Source: Opitutales bacterium | GTDB lineage: Bacteria; Verrucomicrobiota; Verrucomicrobiia; Opitutales; PNEW01 | Assembly: GCA_965197745.1 (NCBI GenBank) | Contig: CBDANS010000007.1 | Location: 1,280,001 to 1,344,000 of the forward strand | Length of the DNA: 64,000 nucleotides | Direction of reading: 5' to 3' | Shown here: piece after piece, positions 49,364 through 59,470 of the stretch | Layout: every line of letters starts with the position of its first letter | How positions within the stretch are numbered: position 1 is the first letter of the stretch | Notes under the pieces: generated by a model | What the model saw: only the letters and a program-made list of their open reading frames with translations | Database searches by the model: none | What the model was told of the DNA's origin: nothing | Made by a program: the position numbers and the translations under genes

Positions 49364-50714
49364 TGGAGTGACCCCCAAAAATGGTATCATTAACAGAGAG
49401 AGGTTATCGGGATAAACAGATAACCTCAATGAAAAGAAAAAGATATACAACAGAACAGATCATAGCAATACTGCGGCAGCCCGATACGGGCAAAACCGTG
49501 CAGGAAGTCTGCCACGGCAACAACCTAAGTGAACAGACCTTCTATCGCTGGGGCAAAAAGTATGGCAACTTGGAGCTGGCTGATGCGAAGCGATTTAAAG
49601 AGCTGGAAAAGGAGAATACGGAGCTGAAGAAGATGCTCGCTGATCAAATGCTCAAGCTTCGGGTGTTGGAGGAAACGCTCTCAAAAAAATGGTGAGCCCA
49701 AAGCAGAAGAAGCGAGCAGTAAAAGATGCGGCTGAGAAGGGGCTGTGCTCGTTTTAGAGGGCTTGTGCTTATCTCAGCCTCAGTTGGTCAACGTACAGCT
49801 ACCGACCCAAGCAGGCCAGTAAGAAGGCTCAGCAATTGGCCGAGCGGATTTTGACCTTGTCCTGGGAACATCCCCGTTACGGTTACCGGCGCATTCGTGC
49901 CTTGCTGGTGAAAGAAGGTTGGGCGGCAAGCAGGAAATTTGTACAGGCAGTGCGACGTTCTTCGGGCTTACAGGTAAAGCCCCCGAAAAAGCGTAGACAC
50001 CGTCAGGGGATCTCTACTGGGCTCCCTACTAAAGCAACCGGTCGCAATCACGTCTGGTCCTGGGACTTTGTCCATGATCGTACAGACAATGGCGGTATGC
50101 TAAAGATGATGACCTTGATCGATGTACCGAGGAGCTGAAAGCGACGACACTCAAGCGAAGCGAAGACATATACGCGTAAATGTTTACGCATCCGGGTAGC
50201 TCGACAGCTCACCTCAACCGATGTTCTCTCGGTACTCAGCGAAACCATCGATGAAGAGGGAGTTCCTAGCTATATCCGCAGTGACAACGGCAGTGTTCCG
50301 AGGAGCGAAGCGACGACATGCGAAGCCATTCATTGCTCATCAGGTGCAGCAGTGGTTGTCCGACAAAAAGATCAAGGCGATATATATCGATCCGGGCAGT
50401 CCCTGGCAAAACGGTTTCATCGAGTCGTTTCACAACCGCTTACGCGATGAGTGTTTGAACCGTGAAGTGTTGCTCAGCGTGGCTGAAGCGCAAGTGCTAA
50501 TAGAACAATGGCGTCAGACCTATAACAATGAACATCCCCACAGTCGATTAGGCTTTAAAAGCCCACAAGAGTTTGTCACATTCCTTTCCGCTCTTGGCCG
50601 CGTTCGGGCTACGCCCTCACTGCGCCAAGATCTCTCATATACATCAATCCTAAAACCATTAATACCCGGTAACTCTCTCACATAATAATTGGTACGAAAA
50701 ACGGGGTCCAATCA
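49364..50714 (+). mobile_element. IS3-family element (orfA 49429..49695; orfB disrupted by two micro-inserts)
   Basis: TG..CA ends with imperfect IRs (TGGAGTGACCCC / TGATTGGACCCC); A7 slippery site; WSWDF, SDNG, PGSPWQNGFIESF. Confidence 0.93.
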
Positions 50715-51535
50715 CAAGGAGTCATGAAGTTGGTGTTTCCGCTGTTTGTGAGAAATACAAAGCCGACGGCGCTATTGTCTCCGAGCCTACTGCGGCTCAA
50801 ATGCCTTTGGCGGTCATGCCCGTTACCTCGGGGCTGATTTGGTTTACGATAACGTGCCGGGGGAAAGCCAGTCATGCTTCGATGAGAAATGAAATGGTTC
50901 GAGCCGGGGGAAAGGGTTCAGAAATTGCTGTCAGCGCCATTGAGAAAGGTGTTTTCATTATGAATACCCTGTGCCGGCTTGAAGAGCAGTGGGGCCAAAG
51001 CAAGAAGCATCCGCTTTTCCGGCCAGGACACTTTACTCTTCATCCGGGCGTGATTACGGGGTGTCCGAACGGGGTCTTGATTCCCTTCCTCATATCTGAA
51101 TTTTGCACCATTGAATACGCTGTCTGGTACCCGCCTCAAGAAAATGAGGAAGACATCCAGAAAGAGATAGCGGAATACATAACCAAAGCCTGTCAAGTGG
51201 ATCCCTGGCTATGTGAAAACCCTCCTGAAATCAGTTTCAATCTCCATTGGCCACCGTCTGAGGTTCCATCAAACCACCCGATCGTCCAGGCTTGTGTCGA
51301 TGCGCACAACGAGGCTATAAGCCCAAAGGCAGTGGATGAAAGAGATTTAATTCAAGGGTTTGCGGCGGTTTGCGATGCCGCGTTTCTCAATATATCGGGA
51401 ACCCCATCGGTCATTTACGGCCCTGGCAATTTGCTGCAAGCTCACGCCGTTGATGAATATGTTCATATCGAGGAATTAATAACCGCCACCAAAACCTTTG
51501 CCCTTGCCGCCATGGACTGGTGTGGTTATGAATAA
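50715..51535 (+). pseudogene. M20/ArgE-family deacylase, N-terminal half missing
   Basis: Frame open from the IS end: SHEVG..ADGAIVSEPT..GKASHAS..YGPG..AHAVDE. Confidence 0.85.
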
Positions 51536-51571
51536 TTTGTCCAAATATAACTCTATTCGGGGACTTAATTT

Positions 51572-52315
51572 TTGACCATACAAATGGATAAGATCGGGGC
51601 GATTCCGGCCTTTTCACCTTATTACCCTAGGCCACCTGCACGCTATCGATACAACAGATCGCAGTCAGTTTATTTCCGTGCAGATGCATCGGCAATCGAT
51701 CGGGTGTTACCTGCCTGTTTTGAGCTTACCGATAGCGGTTTATGCATCGCTCACGGCATATCTGTTGAGTGGTCGGCCCATTATGGAAAGTTTGAAGCCT
51801 GTAACCTGTATATTGAATGCGAATTCCAAGGTAAAGTTGGCTATTTCCGTGTTGTCTCATTTCTCAATACGAAATGCAGTATACCGGCGGGACGAGAAAT
51901 TTATGGAACGCCAAAAGTTTACGCTGATGTAAATGTTGGCATGGAGGAACGTGTGATGCATACCAAAGCCAATTTGAGCGGTACTGCGGTGATGAGCATT
52001 CGCTCAACCATGCACAAGGAATCGAACGTAAGTGAAATCCGTGCCCTGCAACCGATTTGGACGCTGAAGGTGATCCCGCGAGCCGACGGAAAGGGAGCCG
52101 ATGTTATGCAGCTTATCGATAGCACCAACGTGCAAGGCGACATAACCGTCCATATTTGCATGGCAGGGGATGGCGTCGTGCAGTTCAATCCATCACCCAC
52201 ATACAATCTCTTCGATTTTACACCCCTTGAGTATTATGGAACCTACTACCCGGAAAGAGACCACACCGATGGATTTGGCGAAATCGTCCACGACTTTAAA
52301 AATGAATCCTTGTAA
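51572..52315 (+). CDS. Acetoacetate decarboxylase family protein
   Basis: GREIYGTPK Schiff-base lysine motif; LKVIP. Confidence 0.85.
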   Translation: MTIQMDKIGAIPAFSPYYPRPPARYRYNRSQSVYFRADASAIDRVLPACFELTDSGLCIAHGISVEWSAHYGKFEACNLYIECEFQGKVGYFRVVSFLNTKCSIPAGREIYGTPKVYADVNVGMEERVMHTKANLSGTAVMSIRSTMHKESNVSEIRALQPIWTLKVIPRADGKGADVMQLIDSTNVQGDITVHICMAGDGVVQFNPSPTYNLFDFTPLEYYGTYYPERDHTDGFGEIVHDFKNESL

Positions 52316-57114: not shown

Positions 57115-57470
57115 GGGGGTGTTCCGGAATTCGACCTCGAGTTGGAGTGCATGGTGGCAAGTCGGAGATGATGGCTTGGCTCCGTATCAATCGCCATTAC
57201 ATTACAATTGGCAACGAAGAACTTGCTCTTGCTGCGTAATTAACGCAACACGTCTTGATGTTGACACCTGCTAAGCATTAAAGGCGACGTTTGCAGGTAT
57301 AGCCCATATCGGGGATCCGGAGTATGGGTGGTACGTTCTTTCCGGATTCTAGCTCATAGGAAGCCCTGCTTGTTTGCGACCGATAAGCGAATAAACATAA
57401 CAAGCTAAGCTTGTAGAGGCCATGCATGAAACCTCCTGGGACGCGGGTTCGACTCCCGCCACCTCCACCA
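57115..57470 (+). ncRNA. ssrA: tmRNA; tag peptide (A)GNEELALAA at 57210..57239
   Basis: GGGGGTG..CACCTCC-ACCA acceptor stem with G3-U pair; T arm GCGGGTTCGACTCCCGC; tag ends ALAA*. Confidence 0.97.
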
Positions 57471-57527
57471 TTATTTATCGACATTTTGCCAAAATTTGCT
57501 AATCCTAATTAGCAATTTTTAATTTAC

Positions 57528-58152
57528 ATGGCAAAACAGAGATTTAAAATCACCAAGTTTACCAACCCGGGTGGGTCAGAAGCCTGGCGCTTATCCGGCA
57601 CCCTAAACGGTAAGCAGATCCGGAAAAATTTCAAGTCCCGCAACGATGCCGTCGCCGAGCGTCAACGGTTATCGATCCGCTATTTAAACGAACAATCAGA
57701 AGGGCAGACGGTTTGGACCACCCTGACCCACGGGCAGAACAAAGAGGCTATTGCAGCTATTAATCTTCTTAAGCAAGCCAACTCCAGTAAGCCTCTCACC
57801 TTCGTGGTTAACTATTTTTTAGAGCATTATAAAGAAGCCGCTGAGACCATGACAGTCGAAGAGGCTATCCGGGAGTATTGCGATCATAAATCCAAGGAAA
57901 TGGAGCGTGGGATCATCTCCTATCGGCAGGAACGCGCCATTGCCTTGGAGATGAGAAAATTAAAGTGCTATTTCGCGGGGCGGATGGTGAATGAAATTCA
58001 ACCGGAAGAGCTTAATACATACCTCGACACACGACACGCTTGCTCAAGGGCAGTGCCTTCCCTTAAAACTTGGAATAACCGCCGTGGATACCTAAGCACC
58101 TTTTTCAAGTACTGTGTAGCGAAAAAATATGTGGGAGAAAATCCGATTCTGT
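57528..58152 (+). pseudogene. Tyrosine integrase N-terminal part; catalytic domain removed by IS3
   Basis: Arm-binding-like N-terminus, core-binding helix SLKTWNNRRGYLSTFFKYC..ENP; directly downstream of tmRNA. Confidence 0.8.
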
Positions 58153-59470
58153 TGGTCGTGACCACGAAAACTGGTACACTTGAAAAGTTAGTCTGGGTAA
58201 CCTAGAAAGGACTCAGACAATGAAAGGCAAAAGATACACAACTGAAGAGAAAATACGGATGCTGCGGCAGGCGGACAAAGGGAAAACGATCCTGGAAGCA
58301 TGCCGCGAGAACAACATTAGCGAACAGACCTTCCACCGCTGGAAACGTGAGTTTGGGATGATTGATGTCAACCAGGCCAAGCGGATGAAGGAGCTCGAGA
58401 AGGAGAACGCGCGGTTAAAACGGATGCTGGCGGACAAGATGCTGGGGATAGAGATCCTGCAGGAGACCCTCGAAAAAAAACTGTAAGCCCTGGGCACAAG
58501 CGGCAAGTGGCAGAGAGACTTGTGACTCGGGGCCAGTGTTCGATGCGAGCGGGGTGCCGGTACTTTCGGCTGCACCGTTCCACCTATGCGTATAGGGCCA
58601 AGCATCCGGATGCCTGGCTAACGGAAACTAAAAGCGGCAGTAAGGCGGTTATCACGGCAATACGCGAGGTGGGGCTATCCCAAGATCACGAAGCTGTTGA
58701 AGGACGAAGGCTGGCAGGTGGGTAAACGTCTCGTGCAAGGTCTGCGACGTGAACTGGGTCTGGCGATCCCCCCACGCAAGCCAAGACGCCGGCGCAGGGG
58801 TGTCTGCACCGGGCTACCGACAAAGGCCGAACATCCCGACCATGTTTGGACCTGGGATTTTATCCACGATAAGACGGTCCGCGGTGGCAGTTTAAAAATG
58901 TTGACCGTGCTCGATGAGTACACCCGCGAGTGCCGGGTGATCCATGTTGATCGCCATATCAATGCGGAAACGGTGCGCGGTATCATGCAAAAACTGCTCG
59001 ACCGGCATGGGCCGCCAAAATATATTCGCAGTGACAACGGTTCCGTTCCGAGGAGCGAAGCGACGACATGCAAAGCCATTCATTGAAAAGGAATTGAGAG
59101 CCTGGCTAACTGCGATGAAAATCAAAACCCTCTATATCGAACCAGGAAGCCCTTGGCAGAACGGATACATCGAATCGTTGCATGCCCGTTTTCGCGAGGA
59201 GTGTTTAAACCGTGAACAGCTATGGACTTTGACCGAAGCCCGCGTGGTGATCGAGGACTGGCGCTGGCTTTACAATAATGTCCGACCCCACCGCAGCCTC
59301 GGCAATATCACCCCACGGTGCTTCGCTGAAGACATTAATACCGAAGGCTTGGGCTCCATTCGGGCTACGCCCTCATTGCGCCCAAGCCTTGACTTCCTCT
59401 ACCAACTTAACTTCAACATTAACCTCTCCAGACTAACTCTCTCGGTGGACCAGTTTACGTAACCCGATCA
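58153..59470 (+). mobile_element. IS3-family element (orfA 58220..58486; orfB with a frameshift near 58625 and a 32-bp micro-insert)
   Basis: IRs TGGTCGTGACCACGAAAACTGGTACAC / TGATCGGGTTACGTAAACTGGTCCAC; A8 slippery site; WTWDF, SDNG, PGSPWQNGYIES. Confidence 0.93.

Follow-up and report, generated by a model that had tools for sequence, protein, structure and literature searches.

Short hairpin modules resembling repetitive extragenic palindromic (REP) repeats have colonised and disabled transposase genes of IS3-family insertion sequences (IS) in the genome of an Opitutales bacterium (Verrucomicrobiota). Two of the affected IS3 copies lie in a stretch of 64,000 nucleotides (nt), referred to here as the window (GenBank assembly GCA_965197745.1, contig CBDANS010000007.1, positions 1,280,001 to 1,344,000 of the forward strand); it is part of a 4.45-Mb genome in 7 contigs, G000, whose assembly is 92% complete. 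An earlier note on the window had described the same 32-nt insert at one codon of two diverged transposases, and a related 43-nt insert in one of them. The observation is real and far more extensive than first noted. We give a little better than an even chance to the reading that a small directional REP-like module settles at AR dinucleotides (AA or AG), that the carrier IS copies are mobilised in trans and that the insert is spread among them by gene conversion.

The two window copies (Table 1), one of family A and one of family B, belong to the IS3 family. They have an OrfA with a helix-turn-helix, which matches HTH_Tnp_1 in both, an A-rich slippery site, an OrfB in the -1 frame, a DDE (rve) core and termini that read TGG...TCA, with the TG...CA terminal inverted repeats of IS3; a full-length relative matches HTH_21, rve and rve_3. 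The family A copy is one of 15 copies of about 99% identity, which make up subfamily A1. Between families A and B the transposases are strongly diverged (nonsynonymous differences per site, pN, ~0.36; synonymous, pS, ~0.83), as the note had claimed. The inserts also sit where it had placed them, and the two 32-nt inserts differ only at one position (G 50322 vs A 59072). A search of the window with a 30-nt pattern allowing two mismatches or fewer returned these two inserts alone, and 100 shuffles gave no match. The 43-nt insert (50125-50167) was confirmed as well, and the family B copy is empty at that site. Of the claim that the insert splits a Glu codon and shifts the frame, the frameshift stands for site B, where both modules add a net +31 and the family B frame ends at a TGA (59084-59086), but the codon is not simply split, since AR is replaced by 33 or 44 bases. 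The site A module adds a net +42, stays in frame and brings in a TGA at 50137-50139.

Table 1. Features in the window, and sites at which the module was found in IS3 copies (positions refer to the window)
Feature	Position	Strand	Remarks
IS3-family copy, family A, subfamily A1, defective	49364..50714	+	BLAST ends at query 64-1414; OrfA 49381-49695; A7 slippery run 49683-49689; OrfB in -1 frame
In-frame TAG in orfB of the family A copy	49755..49757	+	direct reading
Site A module	50125..50168	+	43 nt + terminal A; replaces AA of the Glu codon in LID-E-YTR
Site B module, family A	50296..50328	+	32 nt + terminal A; replaces AR of the Glu codon in SDNGS-E-F
IS3-family copy, family B, defective	58153..59470	+	OrfA 58220-58486; A8 run 58473-58480
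Site B module, family B	59046..59078	+	replaces AG of GAG
Site C			35-nt insert in the Glu codon of RLRD-E-CLN; net +34; found by fuzzy search; empty form GAT GAG TGT
Site D			antisense 25-nt module right behind the slippery A8 run; net +23
Site E			~44 nt in the PWQNG motif; at least 8 copies; filled and empty alleles
Generic module core	17771..17785	+	in a TGTCA-tagged hairpin repeat
Generic module core	25881..25895	-	in a TGTCATTGCGAGGA-type hairpin repeat
Generic module core, longer inner stem	31570..31595	+	in a TGTCA-tagged hairpin repeat
Generic module core (TTCCGAG...CGACATCTTCCA)	36584..36609	-	intergenic

Alignment of empty with filled copies at sites A, B, C and D gives a common junction rule: the inserted segment starts with T(A/T)CCGAG, ends with CA and stands in place of AR. 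Empty alleles read GATGAATATAC at site A (GAT GAA TAT). At site B they read GGCAGTGAATTC or GGCAGTGAGTTC in family A (GGCAGTG, then AA or AG, then TTC) and GGTTCCGAGTTT in family B, or GGTTCCGAGTTC in contigs of the sequencing runs X15 and X16 (GGTTCCG AG, then TTT or TTC). The Glu codons hit, E-Y, E-F and E-C, are each followed by T. Site D is filled in at least six copies and in one diverged seventh (for example G000:C4:58570-59918); its empty allele, read antisense, is TTAC AG TTTT, and the window copies are empty there (58481-58482). With the module at site D, OrfA ends in KKW-stop and OrfB is shifted from the -1 to the +1 frame relative to OrfA. The 3' junction at site E is ambiguous, and a replacement of a single A is possible. 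Every insertion shifts the frame or adds a stop, so that carriers are unable to make a full-length transposase, and plain deletion of an insert leaves GA+TTC, a codon one base short.

The search of this genome and its relatives that the note had proposed was productive. A core motif pattern, CCGAGGARC-N3-6-GYGACGACA, with its reversed form as control, has 117 copies in G000 (a looser regular expression counts 103) and 18, 69, 5 and 64 copies in four of 40 related genomes; it has none in the other 36, and the reversed pattern gave 0. Among 76 full-length IS3 copies (BLAST copies aligned over at least 1200 nt, of several subfamilies and many of them 97-99% alike), the 32-nt insert is present in 68, the 43-nt insert in 31 and the 35-nt insert in 9. 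By combination, 36 copies are filled at site B only, 26 at A and B, 5 at A, B and C, 3 at C only and 1 at B and C, and 5 at none. Filled and empty site A alleles number 30 and 10 in G000, 3 and 7 in the genome G001, and 44 and 7 in the genome G002, where two of the seven empty alleles carry the flanks of a high-copy subfamily. Every fill-state combination occurs in three related genomes, and all are present in the sister genus.

When the inserts are replaced by one base, most frames are open, with 354 or 415 amino acids (aa) in family B and 318 aa in subfamily A2. All 15 A1 copies open just 271-284 aa, vs 318 aa in A2, in a frame that begins just past a shared TAG; this nonsense codon is apparently common to the whole A1 subfamily. 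An insert-free family B copy (L133, G000:C7:1901150-1902700) has an extra T in orfA and an open reading frame (ORF) of 403 aa, in which the first ~58 OrfA codons are fused to the OrfB frame and out-of-frame residues stand in for the end of OrfA. The family B window copy has one extra base at 58622/58623, absent from contigs of the runs X1 and X3 and partly of X15; from this comparison and from their equal length, the 415-aa frames of subfamily B1 would stem from the same early +1 T. Two copies of G000 are empty at all sites (C7:406739-408029 and C7:1352654-1353941). One of the two, read directly, has canonical frames, OrfA with 88 aa and, overlapping it, OrfB with 307 aa, and the second has the same frame lengths. 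Target duplications of 4 nt were found at unrelated loci for 13 of the 67 copies with both ends, and 12 of these 13 carry inserts. The TAG of A1, the +1 T of the 415-aa frames, the antisense module at site D, the intact empty copies and the target duplications together suggest that the carriers are non-autonomous and have been moved in trans.

Four sequencing runs, X1, X3, X15 and X16, were available, all of them as contigs, and therefore neither expression nor absence can be judged from them; DNA may be present in the RNA libraries as well. The insert region is covered by contigs of X1, X3 and X15, with X15 record 13 and X1 record 4 spanning the insert, and an RNA-library contig of X15 keeps it (58971-59167). 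The empty allele of the subfamily B2 type (AGTTT) is present in X1, X3 and X15. RNA-library contigs of X15 (depth 22) and X16 (depth 8.47) join 59045 to 59079 via AG, giving GAG TTC; this joint has B1-type flanks, and the form is absent from the X1 and X3 contigs and from G000. It is read here as the empty allele of another strain and not as a product of processing, because removal of the insert cannot yield GAG. The empty alleles that had been suggested for sequencing data are indeed present in the contigs, and no RNA-library joint fits precise excision. No sign of splicing or bypass was found in the contigs of the four runs, and the proposal that the segment is removable or bypassed and tolerated by an active IS gained no support in view of the A1 nonsense codon, the antisense site, the intact empty copies and the RNA contig with the insert.

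The inserts look younger than the genes that hold them. Subfamilies A1 and A2 differ by a dS (synonymous substitutions per site) of 0.36 and have both inserts in common with 0-1 change in 75 nt, where by our arithmetic about 7 changes are expected at their overall divergence of 10%; the 32-nt inserts of families A and B are 31-32/32 identical although the pS of their hosts is ~0.83. The IS tree proposed in the note to separate repeated gain from inheritance, built here without the insert columns, needs at least 6, 5 and 5 state changes for the three sites, with empty B2 copies standing among filled ones; these counts are rough, owing to modest tree support and recombining copies. Filled and empty B2 copies differ in the triplet after the insert (TTC vs TTT), and the filled form matches B1. 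That this difference travels with the insert suggests that the insert has been copied from another IS copy along with a few bases of its flank. The insert variant is particular to each site, even across very diverged IS families, which fits transfer from copy to copy between IS.

The module is not confined to IS3. The generic pattern T[AT]CCGAG-N4-32-CGACA has 256 matches in the genome vs 18 in the reversed genome used as control, and 126 of the 256 lie inside IS3 copies. By class, 70 are at site B, 30 at site A and 12 at site C, 41 are nested in TGTCA hairpins, 7 are preceded by TTCG and 96 are other, some of these in simple-repeat spacers. In the window, the shorter pattern CCGAG-N4-32-CGACA has 11 matches vs 2.74 expected. 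In the 41 nested cases, the module occupies the 3' arm of a hairpin built as TGTCATTGCGAGGA-stem-GACGCGGCAATCCAG; without it, the sequence is GGC AA TCCAG. The genome holds 69 such TGTCA-tagged hairpins, which share a CGAGGAGC-loop-GCGACG core with the IS inserts and flank four small GIY-YIG genes as inverted pairs; those in the window with a nested module (17733-17800, 25840-25900 and 31535-31610) are of the same kind. Three of the TTCG-preceded copies are linked to tRNA: they lie downstream of tRNA-Asn and tRNA-Gln genes, where they occupy the T-loop of a remnant tRNA 3' end laid out as GGTTCG[..]ATCC, acceptor and CCA, with the insertion site GGTTCG-AA-TCC.

In G002, tRNA-Asn is followed by a 93-aa GIY-YIG gene and then by a partial tRNA-Asn, in which a perfect hairpin replaces the anticodon arm and the motif occupies the T-loop; this unit is present as a tandem duplication. 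Intergenic mosaic repeats of G040 contain the motif as one of their modules. For the non-IS copies, the one spacer aligned with sister genomes is too diverged to give a clean empty site. Rfam scans of the window stretch, the tRNA-linked loci and the loci of other genomes, with E up to 1, gave no family for the motif and returned only tRNA, tmRNA and weak chance matches. A few loci were also observed in their own right. At G002:C1:398300-400900 (L053) and on a contig of a Phycisphaerae metagenome-assembled genome (L073), an Ssn-like GIY-YIG gene stands directly behind tRNA-Asn, and the anticodon arm of the partial tRNA is replaced by a hairpin, TCCCGAC-loop-GTCGGGA. A Planctomycetota contig has the same D-arm-plus-hairpin unit three times in tandem. 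In G035 (L006/L011 and L017), tandem units of ~105-110 nt follow tRNA genes (tRNA-Ser in L006) and end in the tRNA's own T-stem and acceptor 3' strand, the motif lying in the T-loop of an inverted-repeat T-arm.

As for the structure of the module, the note had ascribed exceptional stability to a GCGAAGC mini-hairpin. Nearest-neighbour DNA folding gave only -1.6 kcal/mol, a value equalled or bettered by 187 of 200 shuffles; the folding of the insert is no better than that of shuffles on either strand. The first mini-stem is the only stem supported, namely by covariation: in the 117 copies the positions that close it are G..C in 103, A..T in 13, G..T in 1 and others in 0, across eight different loops. 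Next to it are conserved GA/AG positions that could pair in sheared geometry. On the antisense strand the stem is adjoined by TGTCG, a feature reminiscent of CGTC/TGTC-tagged repeats (Di Nocera et al., 2013) and of the SRM hairpins of Ssn nucleases (below).

Next to the family B copy of the window lie a tmRNA gene (57115-57470) and, after it, an integrase-like frame (57528-58205), whose 3' end is overlain by the IS; its last ~50 nt run into the IS, and it was most likely interrupted by it. By tblastn, similar N-terminal integrase pieces occur at five other loci, several of them beside family B copies. Elsewhere, an island with an integrase abuts an IS3 copy at a T-loop-like ATCGAATCG (YIES codons; G000:C7:1066385). 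The idea of an integrase att-site scar was dropped, as this junction has no module; integrases lie at C7:1065131 and C7:1087573, and the 12 frames scanned in C7:1088820-1115304 contain no integrase domain.

Candidates for an enzyme that moves the module are an Ssn-type GIY-YIG nuclease and a Y1 transposase of the REP-associated tyrosine transposase (RAYT) type. Y1_Tnp matches are present in all 5 motif-positive genomes (1, 6, 4, 26 and 46 matches) vs 17 of 36 others. With GIY-YIG genes in 35 of 41 genomes, their presence does not discriminate. The co-occurrence with RAYT/Y1 genes raised in the note did not amount to a link: the single Y1 gene of G000 had no module in the 1.3 kb of sequence read on its surroundings, and a module is nearby at only 2 of 13 Y1 loci of the five genomes. 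In G040, which has 46 Y1_Tnp matches, many of them frames of ~330 aa and clustered at ~2.65-2.80 Mb, two of the six Y1 loci read have one module copy just past the 3' end of the gene. The core motif was found at 0 of 55 loci of relatives of the Ssn-like nuclease of G002; the strict module pattern fits three of these loci, all of which have a long spacer and lack a clear stem, and six more match only a looser CGAG..CGACA pattern. What belongs to the G002-type nuclease seems to be the anticodon-arm hairpin and not the module motif, as the Phycisphaerae locus repeats this hairpin instead.

On the reading we prefer, the module, which has the form 5'-T(A/T)CCGAG, a short variable stem-loop, CGACA and a short tail ending CA-3', is a building block of mosaic hairpin repeats in G000 and some genomes of the same order. 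It enters (G/C)-AR-(T/A) sites, presumably as single-stranded DNA, and replaces AR, in IS3 at Glu codons before T, at the A-run (antisense) and at PWQNG, and in tRNA remnants at the T-loop. Rare intact copies would then have supplied the transposition in trans by which the carriers multiplied, while short-patch gene conversion passed the insert between copies and subfamilies, which would explain a young, near-invariant insert in old, diverged transposases. Several points weigh against it. Target duplications are limited to the 13 copies mentioned above. The dN/dS between insert-bearing subfamilies is 0.14-0.3, which would mean that the frames were under selection while interrupted, if the inserts predate the subfamily splits. 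No family A copy of G000 is empty at all sites, so that the A1 burst needs a source that was lost, one in the unassembled 8% or cross-mobilisation by family B. The site-specific variants would fit a functional, selected element equally. Independent insertions into IS3 are not clearly above expectation, with IS at ~2.3% of the genome by our estimate, and the excess need not reflect a preference for transposases, as survival where the module is harmless, followed by IS amplification, may account for it. Finally, no enzyme is tied to the module: a published hairpin pattern for Ssn nucleases (SRM, below) fails, Ssn relatives lack the motif and few Y1 loci have it.

The earlier note itself had offered an ultra-short element that repeatedly hits transposase genes, as a hyperparasite or as a host means of silencing IS. 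Its outline stands, as filled and empty alleles coexist and states have changed repeatedly, while specificity for transposases does not, because about half of the matches are elsewhere, in mosaic intergenic repeats and tRNA remnants. In its stronger form, a hairpin of ~25-45 nt that moves as single-stranded DNA by means of a nuclease or Y1 enzyme, homes to T-loop-like (G/C)-AR-T sites, silences IS3 transposases at the catalytic core and reaches high copy number by riding on the crippled copies is possible but doubtful. That silencing is directed, with an enzyme of the host or of the repeat (Ssn-type nuclease or RAYT) cutting IS3 and repair copying the module in as in homing, seems unlikely. 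It would account for five fixed sites in the catalytic region with homologous codons hit in two families, for the flanking triplet that changes together with the insert, for four GIY-YIG genes between hairpins of the shared core, often module-bearing, for the motif directly behind the GIY-YIG gene of G002 and for Y1_Tnp in every motif-positive genome. Yet the relatives of the G002 nuclease lack the core motif, the hairpin of that nuclease appears to be a different one, GIY-YIG genes are too widespread to discriminate, the Y1 gene of G000 has no module in the surrounding 1.3 kb and related genomes are not independent samples.

An old part of IS3, inherited after each site was hit once and kept by selection, for example in order to make a truncated DNA-binding inhibitor of transposition, would be in keeping with a nearly invariant insert whose variants are retained site by site across diverged families, and with truncated frames that retain the helix-turn-helix and part of the catalytic core. 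We think it quite unlikely, since empty and filled copies with identical flanks adjoin inside young clades, all combinations of fill states occur in three genomes, the same module stands in non-IS contexts and an empty allele flanked by B1-type sequence occurs in contigs of other runs. Recoding or splicing, with the insert excised from the mRNA or skipped by the ribosome through a hop, a +1 shift or stop read-through, perhaps as a throttle on expression, could draw on the many near-identical carriers, on frames that open once the inserts are taken out, on the low dN/dS among carrier subfamilies and on inserts conserved far better than the host gene; by eye, hops AGC..AGC at site A and GCG..GCG at site B would both give VPRSEAK(T/P). 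This is improbable: the net lengths (+42, +31, +34, +23) depend on the site, so that no single mechanism fits, plain removal leaves the codon one base short, the A1 clade shares a TAG, site D is antisense, the module is common outside genes, the X15 RNA contig keeps the insert and the only RNA-library joint, GAG TTC, is unobtainable by removal. The hop codons were rejected on the same points. An artefact of assembly or sequencing is scarcely conceivable, as the same inserts occur in four other genomes and in contigs of X1, X3 and X15. Near-identity of the two IS around the site, which the note had named as a refutation, was not found.

The spread of REP-like and CGTC/SRM-type hairpin repeats is a long-standing question. 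Here, one module occurs at five codon positions of a multi-copy gene, with empty alleles in the same and in sister genomes, and thus target, junction rule and polarity can be read directly. The results also indicate that most copies in an IS3 population can be put out of action by a smaller element, a point relevant to what keeps IS load in check in bacterial genomes. If the hyperparasite reading were true, the module would represent a natural sequence-specific system for transposase knock-out.

Among known systems, GTAG- and CGTC-tagged palindromic repeats with intragenic insertions have been described, the intragenic GTAG repeats being most numerous in Opitutus terrae, placed in the Verrucomicrobia; the same paper cites Rickettsia palindromic elements (RPE) in frame inside genes and leaves the way such repeats spread unresolved, in the parts considered here (Di Nocera et al., 2013; PMC3733652). 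The module resembles REP and bacterial interspersed mosaic elements in being a short (20-45 nt), directional, high-copy stem-loop that forms mosaics and also occurs within ORFs. The alternative raised in the note, a described REP or miniature inverted-repeat transposable element with random targets, is thus half borne out: it is a REP-type repeat, and its targets are not random. Unlike GTAG/CGTC repeats as portrayed there, the module has neither tag on its sense strand and has TGTCG beside the stem on the antisense strand; unlike REP, its stem has conserved non-Watson-Crick GA/AG positions. The classical GTAG tag of REP is missing, as the module starts with TACC (after G or C) or TTCC, and so is a RAYT gene flanked by the repeats (1.3 kb in G000; 2 of 13 Y1 loci). 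The present case differs from intragenic REP and RPE insertions in that module insertions are out of frame or stop-bearing, are concentrated at fixed IS3 codons and have empty alleles that reveal two replaced bases. In the literature consulted, which did not cover the interrupted-ORF list of PMC3733652, no hairpin modules at fixed IS3 transposase codons were described.

Ssn enzymes are single-domain GIY-YIG nucleases of single-stranded DNA associated with NTS/SRM hairpins, of which NTS is rarely in genes (2%) and mobility is only hypothesised, according to the sections used here (Chenal et al., 2025; PMC11893778). By that account, the present case is similar in that TGTCA hairpins flank the four GIY-YIG genes as inverted copies, and in that the motif of G002 follows an Ssn-like gene behind tRNA-Asn. 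It is dissimilar in that no Ssn gene is tied to the IS inserts. The hairpins flanking GIY-YIG genes are of the TGTCATTGCGAGGA type at four genes and of the insert type only in G002. The published degenerate SRM pattern matched 0 of the 69 TGTCA hairpins and none of the three inserts on either strand. Genome-wide it gave 16 matches vs 19 in the control, and it is uninformative in this genome.

Short structured inserts in a conserved frame are also known from translational bypassing (phage T4 gene 60) and from mobile introns in genes of mobile elements. The module differs from both: there are no matched take-off and landing codons across sites, removal does not repair the frame, one site is antisense and the carriers have other defects. 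Among IS that target REP sequences are IS1397 and ISKpn1, both of the IS3 family. Such targeting has been treated by Tobes and Pareja (2006; PMC1525189), and the likeness to the cases covered there is that IS and REP-type hairpins meet at sequence-specific sites. The relation is reversed, in that here the hairpin module lies inside the IS gene.

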